Below, piece by piece: positions 2,244 through 15,745 of a stretch of 32,000 bases of DNA. This DNA is from Horticoccus luteus (GTDB lineage Bacteria; Verrucomicrobiota; Verrucomicrobiia; Opitutales; Opitutaceae), in NCBI RefSeq assembly GCF_019464535.1, contig NZ_CP080507.1, positions 2,190,001 to 2,222,000 of the forward strand, written 5' to 3'. The notes below the pieces were generated by a model, which was given only the letters and a program-made list of their open reading frames with translations, searched no databases and was not told the DNA's origin. A program made the translations under genes and the position numbers. The number at the start of each line of letters is the position of its first letter. Position 1 is the stretch's first letter.

Positions 2244-2392
2244 CGCCAACGCCTTCCCGCGTCGCGCCGCCCGCGCCGCCCGCCTCCGCCCGCGTAAATG
2301 GTAACAAATCACGAATAACGTTCCTCCGCGCACGAAGCCCGCCTCCTCTCTCGACTCGCCGCCCGCCGTCCCCCACGGTCCGGGTCCGCGCC

Positions 2393-3208
2393 ATGTATCA
2401 GAGCTTTTATGGGTTTACGGAGATGCCGTTCAACATCACTCCGGACCCCAAATTCCTCTTCCTCAGCCCCACGCACCAAGAGGCCCTGCAACACCTCAAG
2501 TTCGGCGTGCAGGAGAAAAAAGGCTTCATCGTGCTCGTCGGCGAAGTCGGTTGCGGCAAAACCACTCTCTGCCGCCGGTTCCTCAACGAGCTCGATCCCG
2601 CGCACTTCGATACCGCCCTCATCCTCAACCCCCGCGTCACCGAAACGCAGATGTTGAAGGCGATCCTCACCGAACTCGGCGAAAGCAAACTCGCCCGTTC
2701 CCAAGTCGACCTCGTCGCCCAGATCAACGGCGTGCTCCTCGACCGCATCGCGCAAGGCCGCGACATCGTCCTCATCATCGACGAAGCCCAGAACCTCCAC
2801 CCGGACGTCCTCGAGCAAATCCGCCTCCTCTCCAATCTTGAGACCGACAAACAGAAGCTCCTGCAAATCGTCCTCATGGGCCAGCCCGAGCTCAAGACGG
2901 TCCTCTCCCGCACGGAACTCCGCCAGCTCCGCCAGCGCATCCTCGTTCACTACGAGTTGAAACCGCTCACGCTGGGCGACGTACACGCCTACATCCAGCA
3001 CCGCCTCACCCTCGCCGGCACCAGTGGCCGCCCCACGTTTACCCCCTGGGCCCTGCGCGCGATCTTCCGGCACAGCGGCGGCATTCCTCGCCTCATCAAT
3101 CATCTTTGCGACAAAGCCCTCCTCGCCGCCTACGTGCGCGACTCCGACCTCGTCAACTACTGGGACGCCCGCCGCGCCATCCGCGACGTCCGCAGCCTCA
3201 CCACCTGA
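2393..3208 (+). CDS. ExeA/GspA-like AAA ATPase (PEP-CTERM-locus type secretion ATPase)
   Basis: The N-terminus MYQSFYGFTEMPFNITPDPKFLFLSPTHQEAL, Walker A GEVGCGKTT, Walker B IVLIIDEAQNL and the LVLMGQPEL motif are typical of ExeA/GspA and the TIGR03015-like subfamily. Confidence 0.85.
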   Translation: MYQSFYGFTEMPFNITPDPKFLFLSPTHQEALQHLKFGVQEKKGFIVLVGEVGCGKTTLCRRFLNELDPAHFDTALILNPRVTETQMLKAILTELGESKLARSQVDLVAQINGVLLDRIAQGRDIVLIIDEAQNLHPDVLEQIRLLSNLETDKQKLLQIVLMGQPELKTVLSRTELRQLRQRILVHYELKPLTLGDVHAYIQHRLTLAGTSGRPTFTPWALRAIFRHSGGIPRLINHLCDKALLAAYVRDSDLVNYWDARRAIRDVRSLTT

Positions 3209-3251
3209 ATCCCGCTCCTCCCCGCTTCGCGTTACTCCCTCCACGCCCCCG

Positions 3252-4157
3252 ATGAGCCTCATCAACGACGCCCTCAAAAAAGCGCAACGCCAGCGCGCCC
3301 CCGATGCCGCGGGTGGCTCCGGCGCGTCCCCGGCGGGCGGCGTCGTCGCGAAGCGCTCGCAACCCCTCGCCGCCAAGTGGATCGTCCTTCTCGCCCTCGG
3401 CGGCGTCGCCCTGATCGTCCTCGTCGCCGTGTCCGTGACTCTATTCATTTTAAGCGACACCCCCGCGCCGCGCGTCGCCGCCAACGCGCCATCCGCCGCC
3501 CATCGTCCCGCCACCCCCTCGGTCCCTTCCACGTCCGCCTCCGGCCCTTCGTCATCCGCCATCCGTCCTCCGTCATCCGTCGTCGGTCTCCAGCCCTCCG
3601 CTCTCACGCCCGCATCCCCAGACGCCGCGCAACCCACCTCCGCCGTCCCCGCGCCCAGCGAAAGCCCCGCCCCTCCTGCCGCCAGCACCCCGCGCCCCTC
3701 CGCCGAAACCGCCGCGGTCGCCTCTCCCCGGTCCGTTCCTCCCTCTTCCGCCCTCACTCCGCCTTCAACCGCCTCCCGCTCTCCGTCGTCTGCCGTCAGC
3801 CCTCCGCCCGCCACCGTCAGCGCCGCGCTTTCCGAGCCACCCGCAGTCACCGCCACCCCTTCCGCCGTCAGCCCCGCGTCCGCGACGCTCCGCCCGCCCG
3901 CTCACGACGTCCGCGACGCGCCCGCGGTGAGCTTCGCGATTCCGCATCCCGACGAACGCATCATTGCTTACGTTGATCACCTGCGGGTCACCGGCATCCG
4001 CTCCTCGGGCGCCGACAGCAAAGTGCTCATGAACGACCGCGTGTACCGTGTGGGCGACATCGTGGACCGCGACCTCCAGTTGAAACTCGTAAAAGTCGCC
4101 CCCGAGCTCCTCACCTTCGAAGACCCCCGCGGCCTGACCTACACAAAAAACTTCTAG
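3252..4157 (+). CDS. GspB-like single-pass membrane protein with long Pro/Ser/Ala-rich linker
   Basis: ORF 3024..4157 trimmed to the ATG at 3252 (MSLINDALKKAQRQR, a typical ExeA-partner N-terminus). It has a TM helix WIVLLALGGVALIVLVAVSVTLFIL, a low-complexity linker, and a C-terminal RVTGIRSSG...VLMNDRVYRVGDIV...LKLVKVAPELLTFED domain resembling GspB_C. It lies 43 nt after the exeA-like stop. Confidence 0.6.
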   Translation: MSLINDALKKAQRQRAPDAAGGSGASPAGGVVAKRSQPLAAKWIVLLALGGVALIVLVAVSVTLFILSDTPAPRVAANAPSAAHRPATPSVPSTSASGPSSSAIRPPSSVVGLQPSALTPASPDAAQPTSAVPAPSESPAPPAASTPRPSAETAAVASPRSVPPSSALTPPSTASRSPSSAVSPPPATVSAALSEPPAVTATPSAVSPASATLRPPAHDVRDAPAVSFAIPHPDERIIAYVDHLRVTGIRSSGADSKVLMNDRVYRVGDIVDRDLQLKLVKVAPELLTFEDPRGLTYTKNF

Positions 4158-4170
4158 CCCCCGGCTGAAG

Positions 4171-4768
4171 CGTTCGACTAACGAATAACGATTAACGAAT
4201 TTCGATTTACGCCCCACCCCGCCATTCGTGTCTGTTCGTGTCCATTCGTGGTTAAAACAGGAGCATTCTACAGAAGGTAACGAAGGTAAGGAAGAAGCGC
4301 TCGGCCACGTCCGTTCGACTCACGAATAACGAGTAACGAACACCGATTCACCCGTCTGCCCATCTGTGTCCATCTGTGGTTAAAGAAAATGCCTTTTCGA
4401 CCGTCGCCACAGCTCACCCCGCCATTCGTGTCTGTTCGTGTCCATTCGTGGTTAAAACAGGAGCATTCTACAGAAGGTAAAAACGGTAATGAAGAAGCGC
4501 TCGGCCACGTGCGTTCGACTCACGAATAACGAGTAACGAACACCGATTCACGCATCTGCCCCCATCCGTGTTCATCTGTGTCCATCTGTGGTTAAAAAAA
4601 CGCCTTTCCAATCCTCGCCACAGAGTAAATCCCATACCTCTCCTCGGTGGATGGATTAACGAATAACGGTTAACGAATTTCGATTTACGCTCCTCCCCAC
4701 CCATTCGTGTACGTTCGTGTTCATTCGTGGTTAAAAATACTCTCTCCGGAAATTCGCGCCTCTTCGCG
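4171..4768 (+). repeat. Composite mosaic repeat locus 1 (two 200-bp tandem units plus a partial third)
   Basis: 4215-4414 and 4415-4622 align base for base apart from one extra decamer. Modules are CATTCGTG x3 + GGTTAAAA, TACAGAAGGTAACGAAGGTAAGG..., CACGAATAACGAGTAACG..., and CATCTGTG x2 + GGTTAAA. A 52-mer at 4269-4320 is identical to 8291-8342. Confidence 0.9.
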
Positions 4769-6469: not shown

Positions 6470-7990
6470 CTACTGTCCGCCCCGTTCCCCGACCAACGCC
6501 CGCCAAGCCGCCACGTGCCGGCTAAAGGTGAATGCTTGCTCCGCCAGCGCGCGCGCCCTGCCGCCCCGCTCCGCCGCATCGTCCGGCTCTCGCGCCGCCC
6601 CCCGAATGATCTCCGCCGCGCTCGCCACGTCGCCGGCCGGCACCGCCCAGCCCAACCCGTGTTCGCGCACCAGCCGCGCGCCTTCCGCGTCGAGGTCGCC
6701 CGTGAGCAGCAACGGCCGCCCCGCCGCGAAAATATTATACATCCGGCTCGGCACCGAGATCCCCGCCATCCCGGCCCGAAACGGCACCAGCATCACGTCC
6801 GCCGCCGCCAGCCAGTCATTCAACTCCGCCGGCGGACACGGCGGCGCGAGACAAACATTCGCCGCCCCACCCAACGCCGCGTCGACCTCCGCCCGCCCCA
6901 CGCCGCCCGCGTAAATGAGAAACCGAATCGACGCATCGCCGCGCAACGCCCGGGCGAGCGCGATCACCAACGCCCCATCGTGCGTCCGCCCCAACGTGCC
7001 GCCCACGCCGACCACCGTCTTCCCCTGCAACCCCCAACGCGACGTCACCGGCGACGCCTCCTTGGCCACAGCCCGCAACCCATCGACGTCCCCCCAATTA
7101 GGAATCACCACGATCCGCCCTCCACCGCCTCCCGCCTTGCCTCGTCCTCCTTCGCTTAATCTCACTCGCCCCACCTCCGTCGCGGAAGCCGTGACGCTGT
7201 CGTCCTCCCTTCCTCTCTCGACCGCAAAACCCGCTCCCTCCCCATCCCTCATCTCGCTCTTACTCTTAATCGTGCTCGTAATCGTCCCTCCCGCCGCTCC
7301 ACCCGCCGCCAGTTTGCGCGCGATCACGTCGCGCATATCCCGCCCCAGCACGACGATCTCATCGGCCATTTTGTAGCCGCCGCTGAACCCGCGATCGAGC
7401 TGCCGCAGCAGCCATCCTGGCCGCAGCCAACCCACCGCCGCAAAAACATCCGGATACACATCGTGCACCAGCACGATCACCCGCGCCCCGCGCCTCCGCG
7501 CCGCCCACACCACCGGCCACGGCAGCAACCGCGGGCTGGTCACCACCACCACGACGTCGCCCTGACGCAGATGAGTGAACGCCGCCCGCGTATAAGCGAA
7601 AGTCGTCGTCAGCCAGTTCAGCCCGAGCAACCACGCCCGCGACTTCGGAAACGTCGTGGCCCGCACCCGTCGCACAAGCACCCCCGGCACCTCCCTCGCC
7701 GGCCTAACCCCGACCGCCCCCACCCTTCCCAATCGTTCTCGTTCTCTTTCTCCCTCGACCGAGAATCCCGTCCGATATCCCTCCGCTCGGCACTCTTCGC
7801 CCGTAGCGGACGCCTTCAGACTTTCGTCCGCCATTCGACCTCCGCGCTCTGCCATCCGTCCTCCGTCGTCCTCCATCCGCCCTCCGTCGTCCGCCGTCCG
7901 CTCCCGCGCCAACGCCGTCGCGAGCTCCGTCACGACGCGCCCCGTCGCATCGTCCGGCCGGGCAAACACATCGCAGAAGAACCAAAGCAT
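6470..7990 (-). CDS. GT4 glycosyltransferase (WcaI-like) carrying two in-frame repeat insertions
   Basis: It is homologous along its length to the in-window paralog 20649..21836 (VIPNWGDVDG vs VIPNWADVEF, PSRMYNIFAAGRPLL vs PSKTYYSMAAGSALL, RARALAEQAF vs RARALAESQF) but is 506 aa versus 395 aa. Confidence 0.8.
   Translation of the reverse strand: MLWFFCDVFARPDDATGRVVTELATALARERTADDGGRMEDDGGRMAERGGRMADESLKASATGEECRAEGYRTGFSVEGERERERLGRVGAVGVRPAREVPGVLVRRVRATTFPKSRAWLLGLNWLTTTFAYTRAAFTHLRQGDVVVVVTSPRLLPWPVVWAARRRGARVIVLVHDVYPDVFAAVGWLRPGWLLRQLDRGFSGGYKMADEIVVLGRDMRDVIARKLAAGGAAGGTITSTIKSKSEMRDGEGAGFAVERGREDDSVTASATEVGRVRLSEGGRGKAGGGGGRIVVIPNWGDVDGLRAVAKEASPVTSRWGLQGKTVVGVGGTLGRTHDGALVIALARALRGDASIRFLIYAGGVGRAEVDAALGGAANVCLAPPCPPAELNDWLAAADVMLVPFRAGMAGISVPSRMYNIFAAGRPLLLTGDLDAEGARLVREHGLGWAVPAGDVASAAEIIRGAAREPDDAAERGGRARALAEQAFTFSRHVAAWRALVGERGGQ
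7118..7310. repeat. Intragenic repeat-derived insertion 2 in GT4
   Basis: It encodes AAGGAAGGTITSTIKSKSEMRDGEGAGFAVERGREDDSVTASATEVGRVRLSEGGRGKAGGGGG between ...VIARKL and RIVVIPNWGD. The DNA contains a hexamer-like cttactcttaatcgtgctcgtaatcg and a ccgtgac motif also seen in spacers. Confidence 0.7.
7715..7905. repeat. Intragenic repeat-derived insertion 1 in GT4 (11 in-phase C-rich heptads at 7828-7904)
   Basis: The heptads read ccgccat tcgacct ccgcgct ctgccat ccgtcct ccgtcgt cctccat ccgccct ccgtcgt ccgccgt ccgctcc. On the minus strand they are translated as DDGGRME DDGGRMA ERGGRMA, a 21-bp = 7-aa period. Confidence 0.8.
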
Positions 7991-8094: not shown

Positions 8095-8582
8095 CCCAAC
8101 CGCCCATCCGTGTTAATCCGTCTTCATCTGTGGTCAAAAATGCCTTTCGATCCTCTCCACAGAGTAAATCCCATTCCTCTCCTCGGTGGACGGATTAACG
8201 AATAACAGTTAACGAATTTCGAATTACGCTCCGCCCCACCCATTCGTGTCTATTCGTGTACATTCGTGGGTAAAAAAAATAAGAGTATTTTACAGAAGGT
8301 AACGAAGGTAAGGAAGAAGCGCTCGGCCACGTCCGTTCGACTAACGAATAGCGATCAACGAACACCGATTCACGCGTCTACCCCCCATCCGTGTTCATCT
8401 GTGGTCATCTGTGGTTAAAAAATGCCTTTCCGACCCTCGCCACAGAGTAAATCCCATTCCTCTCCTCGGTGGATGGATTAACGAATAACGGTTAACGAAT
8501 TTCGATTCACGTTTCTCCCCACTCATTCGTGTCCATTCGTGGTTAAAAATACTCTGCACCGGAAATTCGCGCCGCTTCGCGT
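8095..8582 (+). repeat. Composite mosaic repeat locus 2 (about 1.6 copies of a roughly 285-bp unit), same family and orientation as locus 1
   Basis: It has the same module order as 4171-4768 and shares the terminal module GGTTAAAAATACTCTnnnCCGGAAATTCGCGCCnCTTCGCG (8541-8581 vs 4729-4768). Confidence 0.9.
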
Positions 8583-8743: not shown

Positions 8744-10606
8744 TCACTCCAAATACGGCGTATACTCCGGCACGAACTCCCGCAGCAGTTGCTTCACCTG
8801 CGCCGGCTCCAACTGGTGCAGCGTCGTGCTCACCTCCAGAAACCGCGCCTCCGCCACCGAAAAATCCCCGCCATTCCCCACGAACCGCATGATCCGCGTG
8901 TGCTGCGTCGGCTGGTGACTCTCATCATGGTGCCGCAGCTCCTCGAAAAGCTTTTCGCCCGGCTTCAACCCCGTGATCTGGATCTCTATATCATCGCCCA
9001 CCTTCAACCCGCTCAACTCGATCATCTGCCGCGCCAGATCGATGATCTTCACCGGCTGACCCATGTCCAAAACGCAGATATCGCCCCCCTTGCCCTGTAC
9101 CGTCGCCTGCAGCACGAGGCCCACTGCCTCCGGGATCGTCATGAAATAACGCGTCACGTCCGGATGCGTCACCGTGATCGGACCGCCCTTGTCGATCTGA
9201 CGCCGGAAAATCGGGATCACGCTCCCTGACGACCCGAGCACGTTGCCAAACCGCACCGCCAGAAACTTCGTCGCCGGATACCGCCGCTGCACCGCGAGCA
9301 ATTGCAGCTCCGCCAACCGCTTCGTCGCACCCATCACGCTCGTCGGGTTGATCGCCTTGTCGGTCGAGATCAGCACAAACGACCGCGTCTCGTGCGCCCC
9401 GGCGAGCGACGCCAGTTCGCGCGTCCCCACCGCGTTGTTGCGCATCGCCTCCGCCGGCTGCCGTTCCATCAGGAACACATGCTTGTGCGCCGCCGCGTGA
9501 AACACCACCGCCGGCCGGTAACGCGTGAAAATATAATCCATCCGCGCGCGATCCAGGATGTCCGCCACCAAGGGCACCGCGACCGTCGCATGGCCCAGCT
9601 CGTTCAACTCCTGTTCGATCAGGAAAAGACTCCCCTCCGATTGCTCCACCATTAGCAGTTGCCGCGGCGCGAGCGCGGCGATCTGCCGGCAGATTTCACT
9701 GCCGATGCTCCCGCCCGACCCCGTCACCATCACCACCTCTCCCTGCACCAGATGACGGATCGCCTCCGCATCGAGCGCCACCGGATCGCGCCCCAGCAAA
9801 TCCTCCACCTGCACCGGCCGGATGCGGCTCGCCCGCACGCGACCCGACGCCAGTTCCGCCATCGATGGCATCGTCTCCACCTTCAACCCCGCCGCCGTCA
9901 TCGCCAGCACGACCTCGCGCACCCGCTTGGCCGTCGCCGTCGGCATCGCGATCACCGCCTTGGTGATTTCATGCTGTTGCAGATAACGCTCGACGGTCTC
10001 CGGCACGCCCACCACCCGCACGCCATGCAACGTCTTGCCATGCTTCGTCCGGTCGTCGTCGAAAAACACCACCGGCCGAAACCCTCGCGAGGGATGCGAA
10101 ATAAATTCGTTGGCCAGCGCCGCCCCCGCATCGCCCGCCCCGATGATCGCAATCCGTTCCTTCACCGCACCCGTCGTTCGGGTGGACGCAAACCGCTCCC
10201 GCGTGATCCGCGCGCTCAACCGCAATCCACACACCCCCGCGATCGCCAGCATGTAGTCCGCCAGCAAGACCCCGCGCGGGATCGTGAAGCCGTTCAACTG
10301 GAGCACGTGCGGGATTAACAACAAGACGCTTACCACCGTGAGCGCCAGCACCACGCGGGTCAGATCGGGGATGCTGAAATACGTCAGCACACTCCCCAGT
10401 TGCCGCGCCCCGATCAGGCCCACCATCTGGAGGCCCACCACGATCGCGATCCACTCGGTGCGAATCTCCTGGTGTAGCAACGGCACCGCGAAATCGAACC
10501 GCAGTTCAAACGCCAGGTAAAACGCCGCCGTCAACGTCGCCAGATAAGCGACCGCCAGCATCAACACCCGTTGATTGCGGGAAAAATTGAGATCGAGATG
10601 AGCCAT
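8744..10606 (-). CDS. Membrane-anchored polysaccharide biosynthesis protein, CapD/PglF/WbpM-like NDP-sugar 4,6-dehydratase
   Basis: It has N-terminal TM helices, two Rossmann motifs (IIGAGDAGAAL and VTGSGGSIGSE), and the strings HAAAHKHV, STDKAINPTSVMGATKR and RFGNVLGSSGSVIP typical of this family. Confidence 0.9.
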   Translation of the reverse strand: MAHLDLNFSRNQRVLMLAVAYLATLTAAFYLAFELRFDFAVPLLHQEIRTEWIAIVVGLQMVGLIGARQLGSVLTYFSIPDLTRVVLALTVVSVLLLIPHVLQLNGFTIPRGVLLADYMLAIAGVCGLRLSARITRERFASTRTTGAVKERIAIIGAGDAGAALANEFISHPSRGFRPVVFFDDDRTKHGKTLHGVRVVGVPETVERYLQQHEITKAVIAMPTATAKRVREVVLAMTAAGLKVETMPSMAELASGRVRASRIRPVQVEDLLGRDPVALDAEAIRHLVQGEVVMVTGSGGSIGSEICRQIAALAPRQLLMVEQSEGSLFLIEQELNELGHATVAVPLVADILDRARMDYIFTRYRPAVVFHAAAHKHVFLMERQPAEAMRNNAVGTRELASLAGAHETRSFVLISTDKAINPTSVMGATKRLAELQLLAVQRRYPATKFLAVRFGNVLGSSGSVIPIFRRQIDKGGPITVTHPDVTRYFMTIPEAVGLVLQATVQGKGGDICVLDMGQPVKIIDLARQMIELSGLKVGDDIEIQITGLKPGEKLFEELRHHDESHQPTQHTRIMRFVGNGGDFSVAEARFLEVSTTLHQLEPAQVKQLLREFVPEYTPYLE

Positions 10607-10893: not shown

Positions 10894-11220
10894 AACCACG
10901 GCAGAAGTGATTGTTTAAACCTGCGTCAGGATTCGTGCCCATTCGTGTTTATTCGTGGTTAAAAAATTGGCCGTTGCACCGGCTCAGAGTGTTCTTCCGT
11001 GACCTCGGGTTGGGCTCTCCGTGACCTCTGTGGCAAAGGTCGGAATGCCTGGAAGCGGAGCTTAACCACGGCAGAGGTGATTGTTTAAACCTGCGTTCGG
11101 ATTCGTGCCCATTCGTGTTTATTCGTGGTTAAAAAATTGGCCGTTGCACCGGCTCAGAGTGTTCTTCCGTGACCTCGGGATGGGCTCTCCGTGACCTCTG
11201 TGGCGAAGGTCGGAACGTCT
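10894..11220 (+). repeat. 170-bp tandem duplication (copy A 10894-11050, copy B 11064-11220)
   Basis: My hand alignment finds 7 mismatches over 157 aligned bases. Copy B contains the last roughly 22 codons and the stop of the sugar transferase gene. Copy A keeps a ghost of the same ORF end (FATEVTESPTRGHGRTL*). Confidence 0.9.
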
Positions 11221-11879
11221 GATGCCACGGGTTTGAATTCCGGCATCGTGGCGTCGCCCGCGGCGGAAATGCCTTCGCGACGCAGCACCTTGTAAATCGT
11301 CAGCGCGAGGATGCGCACATCAAGCCCGATCGACCGCGTTTCGACATAGCGTACGTCGCATTCGAATTTCTGCTCCCAGCCCAGCGCATTGCGCCCGCTG
11401 ATCTGCGCGAGCCCCGTCAACCCCGGCGGCACCTCATGTCGCCGCGCCTGCCGCGCGCTGTAGCGCGGCAGATAGTCGACGAGCAACGGCCGCGGACCCA
11501 CGAGACTCATCTCGCCGCGCAGCACATTGATCAATTCCGGCAGCTCATCGAGGGAAGTCGCGCGCAGCCAGCGGCCAAACCGCGTGAGCCGCATGGCATC
11601 GGGCAGCAGACGCCCCTCGGCATCGCGCGCACTCGTCATCGTGCGAAACTTGATCAGCTCGAAGATCGCCGCATTCCGGCCTGGACGCCGCTGACGAAAC
11701 AGTACCGGTGAGCCGAGGTTGATGCGCACGAGCAAGCCCACGACCGCGAGCACCGGCACCCAAACCGGCGCCGACAGCACGACCAAGGTCAGATCGAATC
11801 CGCGTTTCAAAAGCACAGGAGGGTCATTCAACAGCCCACCGCCGTCCCGGGTCAATGCGAACCGCGAGCCGGTTGGCAC
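11154..11879 (-). CDS. Undecaprenyl-phosphate sugar phosphotransferase (bacterial sugar transferase, PglC/WbaP C-terminal type)
   Basis: LKRGFDLTLVVLSAPVWVPVLAVVGLLV...GSPVLFRQRRPGRN...FELIKFRTM...DELPELINVLRGEMSLVGPRP is the canonical PF02397 signature. Confidence 0.9.
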   Translation of the reverse strand: MPTGSRFALTRDGGGLLNDPPVLLKRGFDLTLVVLSAPVWVPVLAVVGLLVRINLGSPVLFRQRRPGRNAAIFELIKFRTMTSARDAEGRLLPDAMRLTRFGRWLRATSLDELPELINVLRGEMSLVGPRPLLVDYLPRYSARQARRHEVPPGLTGLAQISGRNALGWEQKFECDVRYVETRSIGLDVRILALTIYKVLRREGISAAGDATMPEFKPVASDVPTFATEVTESPSRGHGRTL

Positions 11880-11880
11880 G

Positions 11881-11922
11881 CGATTCGATCTGCGTTATTC
11901 GTTACCCGCTATTCGGGCTTCG
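11881..11922 (-). repeat. Short inverted AT-type heptad tract (6 in-phase units NNNTTCG)
   Basis: The units read cgattcg atctgcg ttattcg ttacccg ctattcg ggcttcg, the reverse complement of the CGAATNN type. The tract overlaps the stop and 3-prime end of the four-helix-bundle gene. Confidence 0.6.
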
Positions 11923-12319
11923 CGGTACCGGGCTTCCCGTCCGTCACATGGGTCCGCTTCAAATAGCTGATATACCCATTAATCACCTGCAACGCGCGTT
12001 CAACTTTCTGCCGCCCCTGGCTGATTAAGGATTCCGAAATCAAATCCTCATCGCGGGCGGTAATCAGATGATCGAGCACCTCCGTACACGAACCGCGCGC
12101 ATAGCTGCAGAATTTCGAGTTATCGAGATAATGATACCGCCCGTAGCCCTCTGCAATATTCGCGGTGACAGAACGAGCTGCACGCAAAACCTGATCGCCT
12201 AAACGATACCGCTCTTCGTGGGGCAAGACAGGAAGTACATTGCGATAAACGAACAAACGCAGCTCCCGGCCCGCCTTCCAGCAATCGAGATCCTCAAAAC
12301 TTCGAATCGGTGTACTCAT
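11909..12319 (-). CDS. Four-helix-bundle protein (23S rRNA intervening-sequence protein family, TIGR02436-like)
   Basis: FEDLDCWKAGRELRLFVYR...LGDQVLRAARSVTANIAEGYGRYHYLDNSKFCSYARGSCTEVLDHL is the characteristic family pattern. The gene looks less GC-rich than its neighbours. Confidence 0.9.
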   Translation of the reverse strand: MSTPIRSFEDLDCWKAGRELRLFVYRNVLPVLPHEERYRLGDQVLRAARSVTANIAEGYGRYHYLDNSKFCSYARGSCTEVLDHLITARDEDLISESLISQGRQKVERALQVINGYISYLKRTHVTDGKPGTAKPE

Positions 12320-12330
12320 AGGAGGAGACG

Positions 12331-12475
12331 AACAACGCTTAACGATTAACGCTTAACAACCAACAACGATTAACCACAGCAACGAATGACGAGTAACGCC
12401 CAACGAATAACGAATAACGATTAACGATTAACGACAGCAACGATTAACGATCAACGCTTAACGAATAACGATTTC
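12331..12475 (+). repeat. AT-type heptad tract (AACGNNT units, about 20 units with some phase breaks)
   Basis: ...aacgaat aacgaat aacgatt aacgatt aacgaca... was read directly. Its last units encode the aminotransferase C-terminus (VKSLFVKR) and its stop on the minus strand. Confidence 0.85.
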
Positions 12476-14037
12476 ACCCCCGCCACCACCCGCTCCAAAT
12501 CCGCCCGCGTGAGATTCGAACCCGACGGCAGACACAGCCCGCGCGCGAACAAATCATCCGCCACCTCGCCGCCAAACGTGTCGCAGCCCGCAAACACCGG
12601 CTGCTGGTGCATCGGCTTCCACACCGGCCGGGCCTCGATGTTCTCCTTCAGCAGCGCCTCGCGCAACGCTTCGCGGTCGCACCCAAACTTCGCAGGATCG
12701 ACCGTGATGCACGTCAGCCACCGCGTGCAGCGTCCGAACGCCGCCTCCGGCATGAATTCGATGCCCGGCAGATCGGCGAACGCCGCTTGATAAAACGCGC
12801 AATTCGCCCGCCGGGCATTCACCCGATCCGCGAGCACGCGCAGTTGTCCGCGTCCGATGGCCGCGAGCACATTGCTCATGCGGTAATTGAAGCCGATTTC
12901 GGAATGTTGATAGTGCGGCGCCGGATCGCGCGCCTGCGTGGCGAGAAACCGCGCCTTGTCGATCAACGCCTTGTCCGCCGACACCAACATTCCCCCGCCC
13001 GACGTCGTGATGATCTTGTTCCCGTTGAAGGAAAAAATCCCCAGCCGCCCCACCGTCCCCGGCGCAATCGGTTCCCGCACCGCGGCCGGAGCCCCGGATA
13101 ACGAATCACGAGTAACGGATAACGATTTCCTCCCATCAGATAACGCCCCCCCCGCCGCGTGCGCCGCAGGCGTTATATGCGGCCCGTCCTCCGCCGTCCG
13201 ATGGTCGCCCTCCGTCATCAGCCGTCCGTCCTCCGTCCGCCGTCCGCCCTCCGTCATCAGCCGTCCGTCCTCCGTCCGCCGTCCGCCCTCCGTCGTCCGC
13301 CCTCCGTCGTCCGCCGCGCCTGCGTCCCCGTCCCCGGATAACGGATCACGAGTAACGGATAACGGCAATTTACGATAGTAAATTGCCCCCAACGCCTCCG
13401 CCGCATCCTCGATCAAAGGTACGCCATACTGCGCGCACAGCCCCGCGATCGCGTCGAGATCCGCGCTCTGCCCGTAAAGATGCACCAGTATCACGGCCTT
13501 GGGCAGACGCCCCTTCGCCGCGCGATCCTTCAACGCCTCCTCCAGCCGCGCCGGATCCATATTCCAGCTCGTGCGATCGCTATCGATGAACACCGGCCGC
13601 CCGCCCTCGTAAGCGATGGGATTGACGCTCGCGCTGAACGTCAGCGTCGAGACAAATACCTCGTCTCCCCGCTGCAGCCCGATCAAGCGCAACGCCAAGT
13701 GCAACGCGGCCGTTCCAGACGACAACGCCGCCGCATACATCGGCGCGCCAGCGGCCCCGAATAACGAATCACGAGTAACGGAAAACGATCCCCCCCCCGT
13801 CCGTCCTCCGCCCTCCGCCGTCCGCCCCGCGCCATCCGTCGCCTGCCCTCCGCCCTCCGCCGTCCGCCCCGCGCCAGCGGACAACGGAGCACGAATAACG
13901 TCGACAAATTCGCTCTCGAATTTGTCGACGTGCGGCCCGAGCGGCGCGATCCAGTTGGTCGCGAACGCGTCCTGGACGAGCGACAGCTCATCCGGACCCA
14001 TGTGAGGGGAAGAAAGGTGAATGCGTGGTTTGGTCAC
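12451..14037 (-). CDS. DegT/DnrJ/EryC1/StrS-family PLP-dependent sugar aminotransferase with two in-frame repeat insertions
   Basis: The N-terminus IHLSSPHMGPDELSLVQDAFATNWIAPLGPHVDKFESEF, plus SSGTAALHLAL, EDAAEALGA, the PLP-lysine motif FSFNGNKIITTSGGGMLV and YNYRMSNVLAA-like FNYRMSNVLAAIG, identify the family. At 528 aa it is longer than the roughly 370-400 aa I recall as typical. Confidence 0.85.
   Translation of the reverse strand: MTKPRIHLSSPHMGPDELSLVQDAFATNWIAPLGPHVDKFESEFVDVIRAPLSAGAGRTAEGGGQATDGAGRTAEGGGRTGGGSFSVTRDSLFGAAGAPMYAAALSSGTAALHLALRLIGLQRGDEVFVSTLTFSASVNPIAYEGGRPVFIDSDRTSWNMDPARLEEALKDRAAKGRLPKAVILVHLYGQSADLDAIAGLCAQYGVPLIEDAAEALGAIYYRKLPLSVTRDPLSGDGDAGAADDGGRTTEGGRRTEDGRLMTEGGRRTEDGRLMTEGDHRTAEDGPHITPAAHAAGGALSDGRKSLSVTRDSLSGAPAAVREPIAPGTVGRLGIFSFNGNKIITTSGGGMLVSADKALIDKARFLATQARDPAPHYQHSEIGFNYRMSNVLAAIGRGQLRVLADRVNARRANCAFYQAAFADLPGIEFMPEAAFGRCTRWLTCITVDPAKFGCDREALREALLKENIEARPVWKPMHQQPVFAGCDTFGGEVADDLFARGLCLPSGSNLTRADLERVVAGVKSLFVKR
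13092..13364. repeat. Intragenic insertion B in the aminotransferase, bounded by 33-bp direct repeats
   Basis: CCCCGGATAACGAATCACGAGTAACGGATAACG at 13092-13124 matches 13332-13364 at 32/33 positions, offset exactly 240 bp. Inside is a perfect 39-bp tandem duplication, 13206-13244 and 13245-13283. Confidence 0.9.
13756..13900. repeat. Intragenic insertion A in the aminotransferase
   Basis: ccccgaataacgaatcacgagtaacggaaaacg is followed by C-rich heptads and then ggacaacggagcacgaataacg. A 29-bp exact repeat at 13806-13834 and 13848-13876 is spaced 42 bp apart. Confidence 0.85.
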
Positions 14038-14039
14038 GG

Positions 14040-14632
14040 TAAAGAGGTGAAGCGTTATTCGGTTCGGGTTATTGGATATTCAGAAGACCAAGACGAGTGG
14101 AATTCCGGCCGATCAGCGACAAGCTTCGCCCTGCGGCTTCCGTCAGTCAGCCGCCCGCCCTCCGTGCCCCACGAATAACCGATAACGATCACCGGCACGC
14201 CCCGCCCTCCGCTGTCCGTGCCCCACGAGTAACGGATAACGAGTAACACCGCGCTGCGCGGTCGCCTCCGCCCTCAGTCGTCTGCCATCCGCCCTCCGGC
14301 ATCCGCCCTCCGCCGTCCGTGCCCCACGAGTAACGGATAACGATTAACACCGCGCTGCGCGGTCGCCTCCGCCCTCCGCTTCCTCCGCGCCCTCCTGTAA
14401 AAATGTTTTGCTCGCCCCGGTCGCCGCCTAACAACGAATAACGATTAACGGCTAACGAATAACGATTAACGAGTAACGAATAACGAAGAACGAATAACGA
14501 TTAACGATTAACGAATAACGAATAACGATTAACGGCTAACGAATAACGATTAACGCCGCGCTGCGCGCTCCGCCGTCTGCCCTCCGTCCTCCGCCATCCG
14601 CCATCCGCCGTCCGGCGTCCGCCCTCCGCGCC
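14040..14632 (+). repeat. Large compound repeat spacer; core is 28 consecutive in-phase heptads at 14437-14632
   Basis: 17 AT-type units (aataacg/attaacg/gctaacg/agtaacg, 14437-14555) run without a phase break into 11 C-rich units (ccgcgct ... ccgcgcc, 14556-14632). The tract ends at the base before the vapC stop. Upstream are roughly 101-bp higher-order repeats (14203-14275 and 14303-14376). Confidence 0.9.
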
Positions 14633-15037
14633 TCAACGGCTCCCCTCTCTCGCTGGCTGACCGATCAACTCCACCGCGTCATCCTTGATGCCTGCGTCGA
14701 ACGTCGCCAGCCGCAGCCCGTTTTCACGCGCCAGTTGCGTGAGATACGCATCCGACGTTTTTACCGCCGTCGAAGCCCAGCGTGGCAGACGCGGCGATGG
14801 CGCAACCGCAATGAATCCTCCCACGTGCTCCTTCAACAAGGATAGGGCCTCTGACGCTTGCGCCAGACTGTAGCCAAACACCTGCATCGACACCCGCAAA
14901 AACCCAAGTTCAGTATGGGCGCAGGTCCAGAGATGGGAACGCCCTGCCTGCTTGGCCCAAGTGTGAAATGCCGCGTGATGCGATGAATCGCTGTGTTCCC
15001 ACGCGAGAAGGGCATTCACATCGAGGAGGTATTTCAC
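14633..15037 (-). CDS. vapC: PIN-domain ribonuclease toxin, VapC family
   Basis: MKYLLDVNALLAWEHSDSSHHAAFHTW...TELGFLRV...SDAYLTQLARENGLRLATFD matches the VapC (TIGR00028-like) pattern. It overlaps the upstream antitoxin ORF by 4 bp. Confidence 0.85.
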   Translation of the reverse strand: MKYLLDVNALLAWEHSDSSHHAAFHTWAKQAGRSHLWTCAHTELGFLRVSMQVFGYSLAQASEALSLLKEHVGGFIAVAPSPRLPRWASTAVKTSDAYLTQLARENGLRLATFDAGIKDDAVELIGQPAREGSR

Positions 15038-15276
15038 GGGAAATCAGCGAGCGCCGCCCGGATTTCCTCTTCCGTCACCACGCGGCCGGTGCCTGCTGCG
15101 TTGTGGGGCAAACCCGAAACCGGATGCTTCCGACGAACAATTTTAGTCGCCTGCCGTTCAGTTTCACCGAGTGCCGCCTTCCGGAGGTAGGCGGAAACCG
15201 ACGACTTAGCGGCCCGGGCCTTGTCCCGAATCCGCTGTGCCGACGCGGGATCCACTTTGAAACTGATAACGGGCAT
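15034..15276 (-). CDS. vapB: Antitoxin (RHH/CopG-like, VapB-type)
   Basis: This 80-aa ORF overlaps vapC by 4 bp. The N-terminal MPVISFKVDPASAQRIRDKARAAKSSVSAYLRKAAL is a ribbon-helix-helix-like segment. Confidence 0.7.
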   Translation of the reverse strand: MPVISFKVDPASAQRIRDKARAAKSSVSAYLRKAALGETERQATKIVRRKHPVSGLPHNAAGTGRVVTEEEIRAALADFP

Positions 15277-15319: not shown

Positions 15320-15745
15320 CCCCCGCTTCCTCCGCTACCGCCTGCAAAATTCACTTCACGAAACACCTGATCGAATAACGAATAACGATTAACGGCCCGC
15401 CCTCCGCCGTCAGTCCTCCGTCATCAGCCGTCAGACGTCCGTCATCCGCCCTCCGTCCTCCGTCATCCGCCATCCGCCGTCCGCCCTCCGCTCTCCGCCC
15501 TCCGCGCTCTCCGCGACCTCCTGTAAAATTCACTTCAGGAACGCCTGATCGAATAACGAATAACGAGTAACGGATAACGAGTAAACCGCGCTGCGCGGTC
15601 TCCGTCCTCCGCCCTCTCCGCTACCGCCTGCAAAATTTACTTCAGGAAACGCCTGATCGAATAACGAATAACGAGTAACGGATAACGATTAACGCCGCGT
15701 TGCGCGCTCCGTCCTCCGTCCTCCGTCATCCGTCGTCTGCCTTCC
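15320..15745 (+). repeat. Compound repeat spacer: three copies of a CTGCAAAATTCACTTCAGGAAACGCCTGATCGAATAACGAATAACGAnTAACGG unit alternating with C-rich heptads
   Basis: Unit copies lie at about 15325-15395, 15500-15600 and 15612-15706. 19 in-phase heptads run from 15374 to 15506. The final tract encodes the EpsI C-terminal tail and stop. Confidence 0.9.

Follow-up and report, generated by a model that had tools for sequence, protein, structure and literature searches.

Rickettsia palindromic elements (RPEs) are short dispersed repeats of about 100-150 bp that lie in frame in unrelated housekeeping genes, where they are translated with the host protein, form hairpins and are reported to be compatible with the protein fold (PMC10969869). 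Repetitive extragenic palindromes (REPs) and bacterial interspersed mosaic elements (BIMEs) are mosaics of a palindrome and short motifs, mostly intergenic, co-oriented and species-specific, with some copies within open reading frames (ORFs), and Opitutus terrae has been reported to be REP-rich (PMC3733652). Here we describe a 147-nt insert, insert A, in a sugar aminotransferase gene of Horticoccus luteus, together with a second insert, insert B, in the same gene. The stretch of DNA analysed (the window) comprises 32,000 nt of contig NZ_CP080507.1 (positions 2,190,001 to 2,222,000), and all coordinates are given relative to its first nucleotide. We take H. luteus to be a member of the Opitutaceae within the Verrucomicrobiota. 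The 32-kb window is the H. luteus DNA covered by our analysis, and repeat counts refer to it, not to the whole genome.

Both inserts are built from tandem 7-nt units (heptads). As judged from the sequences, the repeat family combines heptads of two types, TAACGRR ('AT') and CCGCCCT ('GC'), with a short palindrome adjoining the AT heptads. We favor the reading that insert A is an intragenic copy of this dispersed heptad mosaic, translated and tolerated in a permissive loop of the enzyme, and assign it a probability of roughly 0.58. In-frame repeats in housekeeping genes, known from Rickettsia (PMC10969869) and from REP-rich genomes (PMC3733652), have previously been treated as discrete, occasional events. 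Here, two loops of one enzyme are filled in more than 80% of 120 orthologs, with inserts that differ between species, yet resemble each other and the intergenic repeats within one genome. This provides a natural system for studying how dispersed short repeats are homogenized within a genome, how much disordered sequence an enzyme fold tolerates, and whether such inserts are constrained as nucleic acid rather than as protein.

The inserts resemble RPEs in being in-frame intragenic repeats, and several of the ortholog inserts are also hairpins. In contrast to RPEs, which form discrete families with a conserved peptide and a defined length, they are mosaics of 7-nt units that vary 20-fold in length and differ between species at the same site, and the blocks flanking insert A of H. 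luteus are direct, not inverted. With transposable elements of the miniature inverted-repeat type (MITEs) and RPE-like elements, the insert shares dispersed copies (within the 32 kb), filled and empty sites, and a tolerated, ORF-preserving placement; terminal inverted repeats are missing from insert A, and no cognate transposase or autonomous parent was found in the window or beside arrays at other loci. Inverted arrays do occur in two ortholog loci (L082 and L083).

The likeness to REPs lies in the mosaic of a palindrome with other motifs, the intergenic bias, with copies between or downstream of genes, the co-orientation, the species specificity and the occurrence of some copies in ORFs. However, the bulk of the element consists of heptad arrays, which are unmentioned in the REP survey (PMC3733652). 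The palindromes here have the form ACCGCGC-t-GCGCGGT in intergenic modules and are gene-derived at two junctions; no GTAG tags were noticed on them, although no systematic search for GTAG or CGTC was made, and the CGTC in that of insert A belongs to a GTCGAC site.

The short tandemly repeated repetitive (STRR) sequences of cyanobacteria have the units CCCCAGT, TTGGTCA and CAACAGT, and such heptads reportedly invade a permissive site of the functional RNase P RNA gene. Our repeats are similar in that tandem 7-nt units are dispersed, mostly non-coding, and enter a permissive site of a gene, and different in that they are translated in protein genes and occur alongside a palindrome and heptads of a second type; neither the STRR unit sequences nor a cyanobacterial host is involved. 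The intervening sequences (IVSs) of 23S rRNA, cassettes that encode four-helix proteins of the PF05635 family ('23S rRNA intervening sequence protein'), have an ORF inside a long stem. A comparable arrangement is seen in the window and in ortholog locus L081, where inverted heptad arrays flank a PF05635 gene next to the aminotransferase on both sides, and the ORF-less inverted heptad arrays of ortholog inserts look like miniature versions of it, whereas insert A contains neither an ORF nor inverted arrays.

We treat the insert as a variant of the dispersed short repeats that colonize coding regions in frame rather than as a member of the RPE, REP, STRR or MITE classes; we do not file it with MITEs or STRRs because it has no terminal inverted repeats, no transposase in the window or beside the arrays of other loci, and no STRR units. 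By analogy, the cyanobacterial STRR heptads appear closest in unit architecture, and in-frame RPEs and REPs inside genes appear to be the closest functional analogues. Our literature search returned no description of TAACGRR heptad arrays, Verrucomicrobia heptads or repeat strings.

Insert A and its host gene

The host is a fold-type I sugar aminotransferase of the DegT/DnrJ/EryC1/StrS family. Its ORF has 528 aa, annotated by NCBI as 516 aa starting at M13, and the product is 100% identical to a Horticoccus luteus DegT/DnrJ/EryC1/StrS aminotransferase of 516 aa (P0001). The match to PF01041 (E=2e-85, 287.6 bits against a curated cut-off of 19.8) is split into two stretches around insert B. The closest structure in the PDB is Campylobacter PglE (1o61/4ztc, E about 1e-77), which HMMER aligns in three pieces (query 5-47, 102-223 and 325-517 with chain 2-44, 50-167 and 168-376), leaving about 49 and about 101 query residues unpaired. 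The SFNGNK motif with the pyridoxal phosphate (PLP)-binding lysine is intact: FSFNGNKIITTSGGG pairs with YSYNGNKIITTSGGG of PglE, and the residues are invariant across orthologs. In the AlphaFold2 model the core has a predicted local distance difference test score (pLDDT) above 90 and superposes on the sugar aminotransferases 7b0m, 1o61 and 4ztc with target-normalized template modelling (TM) scores of 0.84-0.88.

At site A, the nine residues ETLVGSRHA of insert-free orthologs are matched by 58 in H. luteus, and insert A therefore comprises 49 codons, equal to 147 nt or 21 heptads, with boundaries uncertain by a few codons. A preliminary description of this DNA, made from its letters, had placed about 45-50 extra codons here and quoted their peptide; the comparison with PglE and insert-free orthologs confirms the extent, and the quoted peptide is correct. 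The features at this site are as follows, with periods from Tandem Repeats Finder (TRF).

12451-14037, minus strand: host gene, DegT/DnrJ/EryC1/StrS sugar aminotransferase, PglE/EpsN-like (Pfam, PDB, NCBI, AlphaFold2)
13747-13893, minus strand: insert A, R49-G97, the 49 additional codons (147 nt, 21 heptads) (PglE gap, insert-free orthologs)
13755-13787, plus strand: AT-type heptad block of 33 nt, CCCCGAATAACGAATCACGAGTAACGGAAAACG (ccccgaataacgaatcacgagtaacggaaaacg); the coding strand encodes SFSVTRDSLFG
13790-13876, plus strand: C-rich heptad array of CCGCCCT/CCGCCGT type, G-rich on the coding strand, encoding GRTAEGGGQATDGAGRTAEGGGRTGGG; TRF periods 7 and 21
13805-13834, plus strand: 30-bp exact direct repeat, copy 1, same as 13847-13876
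13847-13876, plus strand: 30-bp exact direct repeat, copy 2, at an offset of 42 bp (6 heptads, 14 codons)
13744-13754, plus strand: 11-bp direct repeat CGCGCCAGCGG, left copy, identical to 13870-13880
13870-13880, plus strand: 11-bp direct repeat CGCGCCAGCGG, right copy, at an offset of 126 bp (18 heptads, 42 codons)
13881-13897, plus strand: 'degenerate AT-type block', in part an inverted GC-type heptad pair that pairs with adjacent G-rich heptads in the mRNA
13898-13931, no strand: perfect palindrome ACGTCGACAAATTCG-nnnn-CGAATTTGTCGACGT, 15-bp stem and 4-nt loop, codons HVDKFESEFVDV; adjoins insert A upstream in the coding sense
Peptides predicted from the inserts of this gene: TAEGGGQATDGAGR and DSLFGAAGAPMYAAALSSGTAALHLALR

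The autocorrelation of insert A reaches 0.61, 0.57, 0.53 and 0.51 at lags of 7, 14, 21 and 42 and stays at or below 0.36 at any lag in the adjoining coding sequence. With TRF, arrays of period 7 (13800-13869) and of period 21 (13790-13869) are called. The AT-type block and C-rich heptads named in the preliminary description are both there. Its exact repeat, spaced by 42 bp, also holds in a slightly longer form, 30 bp rather than the 29 bp (13806-13834 and 13848-13876) first given, and the spacing of 6 heptads or 14 codons respects heptad phase and reading frame alike. The block that it called a degenerate AT type is present and is in part the inverted GC-type pair listed above. Read in the coding sense, the order is the palindrome (HVDKFESEFVDV codons), the degenerate heptads TTATTCG TGCTCCG TTGTCCG, then CTGGCGCG, about 16 G-rich heptads (GGGGCGG ACGGCGG AGGGCGG and onwards), the AT block, which parses as GTTTTCC GTTACTC GTGATTC GTTATTC GGGG, and CCGCTGGCGCG. 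In the mRNA, CUCCGUUGUCCGCU pairs with GGCGGACGGCGGAG over 14 bp including G:U pairs, and the RNA fold of 13735-13905 has z = -3.8.

A heptad unit within a polysaccharide biosynthesis gene is also what would be expected of phase variation, where slippage by 7 nt, not a multiple of 3, would switch a surface-glycan gene on and off, and heptanucleotide tracts are said to drive phase variation in Haemophilus. For such a contingency tract insert A is too degenerate, with array matches of 70-74% and a longest perfect tandem run of 17 nt (21 nt window-wide), and its sole long exact repeat, spaced by 42 bp, preserves the frame. We consider this explanation very improbable; the longest run of 17 nt falls short of the long, near-perfect tract of non-3 units that defines a phase-variable contingency locus, and that assignment was rejected.

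The sequences of insert A recur through the window. The 33-nt AT-block consensus has three matches (13092, 13332 and 13755) against none expected from shuffles, all in the aminotransferase gene, while a looser 16-mer has 22 against 0.01 expected, 21 of them on the plus strand; all assigned window genes are on the minus strand, so array orientation relative to replication is inseparable from orientation relative to transcription. A further 11-14 places in the window share 12-mers with the inserts, compared with about one for a core control segment; for the C-rich array of insert A there are 14, all on the same strand. The heptad arrays of the window are mainly intergenic. In two plus-strand modules (14140-14640 and 15340-15740), an AT array, the palindrome ACCGCGC-t-GCGCGGT, a C-rich array and a linker of about 33 nt are combined, and a palindrome adjoins the AT array in 5 of 20 arrays against a background of 9%. 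The coding copies of the AT block show a Y-to-D change (TGATYCG) that is unseen in the intergenic copies.

Two of the three block copies lie in insert B, whose features are the following.

13070-13377, minus strand: insert B, about 101 extra codons; PglE runs directly from residue 167 to 168 at the place of query 224-324
13092-13124, plus strand: AT-type block, encodes SLSVTRDSLSG
13332-13364, plus strand: AT-type block, encodes PLSVTRDPLSG
13364-13387, no strand: perfect palindrome GGCAATTTAC-gata-GTAAATTGCC (loop tatc in the coding sense) at the upstream junction of insert B

Parsed into heptads, insert B follows the same modular grammar as insert A (a palindrome, an AT block, G-rich heptads, an internal inverted repeat, a second AT block and GGGG), in line with the architecture that the preliminary description had seen in both. 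Its view of the two modules as independent does not hold. Since the 33-bp block in the window is confined to their gene, A and B appear to share descent or gene conversion, and across orthologs the 3-mer sharing between A and B of one protein is 0.138, against 0.06 between proteins (permutation p<0.0005), which also exceeds that of A with A and of B with B across proteins.

Perfect inverted repeats with a stem of at least 9 and a loop of 3-12 number four in the 32-kb window, against a shuffle mean of 1.2, and the two longest lie at the upstream junctions of insert A (13898-13931, the longest) and insert B (13364-13387, the second). At insert B, conserved gene sequence (GAIY) supplies one arm, and the insert's first bases (RKLP) supply the other. 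We also observe that perfecting the palindrome at site A altered otherwise conserved residues, HVDAFEREF becoming HVDKFESEF. Most orthologs lack junction palindromes; H. luteus, at both sites, and L086, at its empty site A, are the only cases reaching significance, and the idea of a junction palindrome as a general rule was rejected. None is found at the other intragenic GC-only heptad arrays of the window.

Two insertion sites across orthologs

Of the 120 best homologs, 101 have site B filled and 72 site A, while 19 are empty at both; insertions of at least 5 aa occur at no further internal position. Nearly all are metagenomic sequences, and the few named ones are from Verrucomicrobiota or Opitutaceae. 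We treat them as orthologs because they have a common synteny, running from EpsI and the aminotransferase, sometimes via a PF05635 gene, to Bac_transf and Polysacc_synt_2. The inserts are 5-123 aa long; at site B the lengths grade continuously between 2 and 123 aa, and multiples of 7 aa are over-represented (39 of 95, many of these sequences being related). Their composition is hydrophilic, with serine, glycine, alanine, glutamate, threonine and arginine making up about 60%.

The insert peptides are translations of heptads, such as GGRRTEDGG (PPSSVLRPPSS on the reverse strand), LSVTRDSLSG (ITNNEQRITNN on the reverse strand) and SVSSVSSC, and each species has its own dialect. The units are CGGAGGG/CGGACGG in L081; (TTATTGG)n is followed by (CCAATAA)n, and hence by its inverted array, in L082; the insert of L083 is an imperfect hairpin; and that of L086 reads (GTGACAA)n-(GGCGGAG)n-(CTCAACT)n. 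The 12-mers of each ortholog insert recur outside the gene at its own locus, with 0-3 hits for core-gene controls.

Filled and empty sites occur among related genomes. Insert-free orthologs nest among insert-bearing ones in a crude neighbor-joining tree, and two orthologs with 89% DNA identity (P0044 and P0047) differ by 198 bp in insert B. Five orthologs (P0009, P0018, P0021, P0025 and P0054) carry at site B a tandem duplication of a unit of about 39 aa, which spans the boundary between gene and insert because it includes the conserved flanking motif AEALGATYFS. Duplications of the P0021 type take flanking gene sequence with them and therefore indicate unequal exchange.

As an outgroup control, and solely for this purpose, we used a genome scan ranked by contiguous tblastn matches, which yielded 80 orthologs from many phyla, 63 of them aligning as one match without an insertion of at least 3 aa. 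Two of the others concern sites A and B: a Didemnitutus genome with a 19-aa insert at site A only and an Anaerolineales ortholog with a 20-aa non-heptad insert at site B. Both sites therefore appear structurally permissive and the heptad content lineage-specific. That the scan, owing to its ranking by contiguity, returned mostly insert-free orthologs illustrates a practical effect: in the Opitutaceae, and perhaps in other phyla, proteins with such inserts appear longer, their domain matches are split, and homology searches are disturbed.

The ortholog data bear on the possibility that a short seed in a permissive loop expanded in place by replication slippage, with no transfer from other loci. 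The length continuum at site B, the excess of multiples of 7 aa among its partly related sequences, the internal 42-bp and 39-aa duplications and the degenerate arrays without fixed termini would all fit such growth. On the other hand, the 33-nt AT block is complex and non-periodic and yet nearly identical at 13092, 13332 and 13755, insert 12-mers are common to the intergenic modules, and independent slippage yields neither the shared order of palindrome, AT array and GC array nor the resemblance between A and B. Growth in place is for these reasons a rather improbable account of the inserts.

Translation, tolerance and constraint

The gene frame is open across both inserts, and the remaining two frames of insert B contain four and five stops. 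Every insert sequenced has a length divisible by 3 and contains no stop in the gene frame. In the AlphaFold2 model, run with a 57-sequence alignment, pLDDT falls below 50 at residues 46-80 and 222-302 (516-aa numbering), which correspond to the two inserts, and exceeds 90 over most of the core, with the fold intact. Because of the low model confidence there, the insert A peptide, rich in glycine, arginine, threonine and glutamate, is probably a disordered loop.

These data leave hardly any room for removal of the insert before the mature protein is formed, as an intein, an intron or by translational bypass, which we regard as the least credible of the explanations considered. The strong hairpin at the upstream junction would suit it and may be likened to the one at the take-off site of bypassing in T4 gene 60. 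Removal, however, does not require an insert to be stop-free or a multiple of 3, as all sequenced ones are; intein splice motifs and conserved junction residues were not found, the junction residues vary, and Rfam returned no intron match. All three forms were rejected on these grounds.

A further possibility is that the peptide itself is under selection because it serves the glycan-assembly machinery, be it as a flexible linker, as a region for interactions or as a solubility tag. The maintenance of the site B insert in 101 of 120 orthologs, its consistently hydrophilic composition and the Y-to-D change confined to coding AT blocks are compatible with an adaptive loop. Its sequence, however, is unconserved and its length varies 20-fold, 19 orthologs and the 63 from other phyla manage without an insert, and these repeats are also found outside coding sequence and at the ends of unrelated proteins, where they form tails. 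Divergence among three related orthologs for which DNA was available (P0046, P0019 and P0038) points in the same direction. In the core, the proportion of synonymous differences (pS) is 0.33-0.39 and that of nonsynonymous differences (pN) 0.04-0.055, giving a pN/pS of about 0.11-0.14, while in insert B of the same three pN is 0.12-0.18 and pS 0.05-0.15. With a pN/pS at or above 1, the insert B peptide evolves without constraint in this one clade. We judge selection for the loop improbable, and the element most likely gives the enzyme no benefit and persists through tolerance.

The same comparison bears on the strongest rival, a function at the level of nucleic acid, in which palindrome and heptad arrays act in the operon mRNA or in DNA and translation is a tolerated by-product. 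The insert might, for example, be processed by RNase III/E, act as an attenuator or terminator that depends on translation, or offer an array of binding sites to a TAACGRR-recognizing protein. Insert nucleotides diverge less than core synonymous sites while the amino acids change freely; hairpins are predicted for insert A (z = -3.8) and for insert B of the P0046 clade (z -2.8 to -3.8), and the stems hold G:U pairs that work solely in the sense RNA. The two longest perfect palindromes of the window at the two insert junctions, the intergenic palindromes adjoining AT arrays in 5 of 20 cases against 9%, and long inverted TAACGRR arrays between convergent genes in a Bacteroidota-like contig and others also argue for it, and REP stems with G:T pairing have been argued to be RNA elements (PMC3733652). 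Set against this, a scan for terminator-like structures showed no enrichment (five found, 4.5 expected), Rfam gave no match at the gathering threshold or, more permissively, at E up to 1, the fold predicted for insert B in H. luteus is unremarkable (z = -0.6), most orthologs are without junction palindromes, and gene conversion equally explains the low divergence, which was measured in three sequences. On balance, we find a nucleic-acid function unlikely.

Our preferred reading, a translated and tolerated copy of the dispersed mosaic, would run as follows. Insert A would lie in one of the two loops where a conserved PglE/EpsN-like enzyme structurally permits insertion, with the ribosome reading through it and the fold staying intact. 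The sites may have been colonized early in the Opitutaceae lineage and subsequently subjected to repeated gain, loss and overwriting. Their content could turn over by two routes. The first would be slippage or unequal exchange, with selection keeping solely the frame-preserving steps; steps of 21 and 42 bp fit heptad phase and frame alike, and we offer the 42-bp duplication in insert A as a trace of such an event. The second would be non-reciprocal copying between dispersed arrays, including A and B, through gene conversion or replication template switching, as a result of which inserts would become homogenized within a genome. The junction palindromes, the 11-bp flanking repeat and the strict co-orientation of the arrays would fit replication-associated template switching.

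The preliminary description had taken the preservation of frame in both modules as an argument against accident. As regards the sequence itself this is borne out, with three copies of the block where none is expected and 22 of the 16-mer against 0.01. A special frame-aware mechanism is not indicated, because purifying selection on the conserved gene leaves in-frame, stop-free inserts and the orthologs were ascertained via intact proteins.

Several observations weigh against the preferred reading. Insert A has no terminal inverted repeats, its AT-type blocks being in direct orientation, and neither in the window nor beside the arrays of other loci did we find a cognate transposase, reverse transcriptase or REP-associated tyrosine transposase (RAYT). 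The 11-bp repeat CGCGCCAGCGG, which could be a target-site duplication or microhomology, is ambiguous, as it brackets 115 bp of insert A and not its full length, and the reading does not account for the junction palindromes, which most orthologs do not share. A near-identical filled and empty pair was not found: the candidate for site A, P0011/P0055 (L084 680-2086 against L085 3001-4245), is about 100% identical from nt 345 and about 75% identical over the first 300 nt including site A, and it was rejected as a mosaic from recombination or chimeric assembly. The non-heptad insert of the Anaerolineales ortholog weakens the case for sequence-specific targeting and suggests that the site is simply permissive. 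Disrupted copies would escape an ortholog set recovered via intact proteins, and metagenome assemblies may misjudge repeat lengths. Finally, an insert nucleotide divergence of 0.03-0.17, lower than the core synonymous 0.33-0.39, and the hairpin folds of insert A and of insert B in the P0046 clade could reflect selection on a nucleic-acid function rather than neutrality; in the three sequences compared they fit either repeated gene conversion from conserved copies or selection on nucleic-acid structure.

A more far-reaching proposal, which we put forward tentatively and consider unlikely, is that the heptad inserts belong to a so far undescribed class of hairpin-associated TAACGRR elements spread by active, sequence-specific copy-and-paste or array synthesis and constrained as nucleic acid. 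The current dialect of each genome would then keep overwriting the same permissive loops, and arrays could bracket PF05635 genes as long stems.

Heptad arrays beyond the aminotransferase gene

The window is a single long polysaccharide-biosynthesis cluster. Close to the aminotransferase lies a Pgl-type neighborhood, with a PglC-like transferase (Bac_transf, 11154-11879) and a PglF-like dehydratase (Polysacc_synt_2, 8744-10606), and the same synteny surrounds the aminotransferase in L081, L083, L086 and L087. Further genes encode a PF05635 four-helix protein, HAD and ATP-grasp proteins and several glycosyltransferases; an EpsI-like gene is named from synteny alone, as Pfam gave no match. No transposase, reverse transcriptase or RAYT-type transposase was detected among the large window ORFs scanned with Pfam, and a connection to diversity-generating retroelements (DGRs) or bAvd was rejected, there being no reverse transcriptase among them.

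Other genes contain heptads as well. GC-type heptads lie in frame within a GT4 gene (6470-7990) at 7824-7901, encoding RTADDGGRMEDDGGRMAERGGRMADE near the N-terminus, and the ORF 2309-3856 has in-frame GC-type stretches at 3534-3581 and 3736-3767. The EpsI-like gene ends in a heptad-coded C-terminal tail, DVGRQTTDDGGRRTERATRR, at 15689-15740. Two ortholog loci provide further cases, both missing in the orthologs compared: a heptad-coded insertion of roughly 50-60 aa (...GGQQRAEGGRPKVEGGGQQTEDGGRTTEGGG...) in the PglF-like gene of L083 (12078-14096) and a C-terminal tail, RARGGRRRTEDGGRTTEDGGGRAEG, in the PglC-like gene of L081 (12090-12827). Each intragenic heptad stretch read in the window and the ortholog loci is inside an open ORF or extends its C-terminus, with no interruptions, in a tally that covers the stretches read rather than every tandem-repeat row set against the ORF map, the long ORFs not being otherwise validated as genes. 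A search with the insert B peptide found no homologs in protein databases at E up to 0.001, and exhaustive HMMER returned four unrelated repetitive proteins; compositional bias probably defeats the peptide search for other host proteins.

An 18-mer of three AT units, ACGAGTAACGGATAACGA, matches 57 metagenome contigs with GC contents of 0.29-0.69, none from a close Horticoccus relative; by our own rough estimate of the collection size, about ten of these matches are possibly due to chance. An exact 25-mer of the coding-type AT block has no match in the metagenome contigs. The AT-type variants beyond Horticoccus (L088-L144, for example L095 7428-7888, L090 7498-7692, L142 498-755 and L107 655-885) are TAACGAG, TAACGGA and TAACGAA. 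Some contigs have arrays of up to 33 units, and some have inverted pairs of arrays, frequently located between convergent genes, that would form stems of up to about 200 bp. The gene beside the L095 array has its best named matches in Bacteroidota, at 73-76% identity. Short AT arrays also lie directly upstream of start codons in metagenome contigs. In six contigs of about 50% GC (L089, L092, L110, L112, L115 and L137), AT-type heptads are in frame in the N-terminal region (...TRVTDNESRITDHPLRM...) of an apparent radical S-adenosylmethionine (SAM) protein, so named from a CxxxCxxC-like motif after the heptads rather than from a domain search.

The PF05635 gene of the window (11909-12319) is bracketed by inverted arrays at 11885-11922 and 12383-12420 (38 nt, 71% complementarity) and that of L081 (11719-12093) by arrays at 11528-11564 and 12101-12137 (37 nt, 89% complementarity). 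The second PF05635 copy in L081 (L081b) and the copy in L002 lack flanking inverted arrays. An obligatory partnership between array and PF05635 gene was rejected: a rough hidden Markov model (HMM) from four sequences detects the gene at two of 57 array loci, and the flanks are ordinary housekeeping genes.

A second type of intergenic module occurs at 4215-4580, 8100-8560 and 10894-11215, where decamer arrays, CCATTCGTGT / CCATCTGTGT, are followed by GGTTAAAAA; these modules sit in repeats of 170-200 bp with 93-96% identity, each preceded by three AT-type heptads. At 15481-15723, a 107-bp tandem module is present in 2.3 copies with 87% matches and has the order palindrome, C-rich heptads, linker CCTGCAAAATTCACTTCAGGAACGCCTGAT and AT heptads. 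The motif CCTGTAAAA of this region is found again at about 14396 and about 8627. Between heptad-rich intergenic regions, an overlapping ORF pair at 14633-15276 has the layout of a VapBC-like toxin-antitoxin system, as judged from its arrangement and a reading of the sequence.

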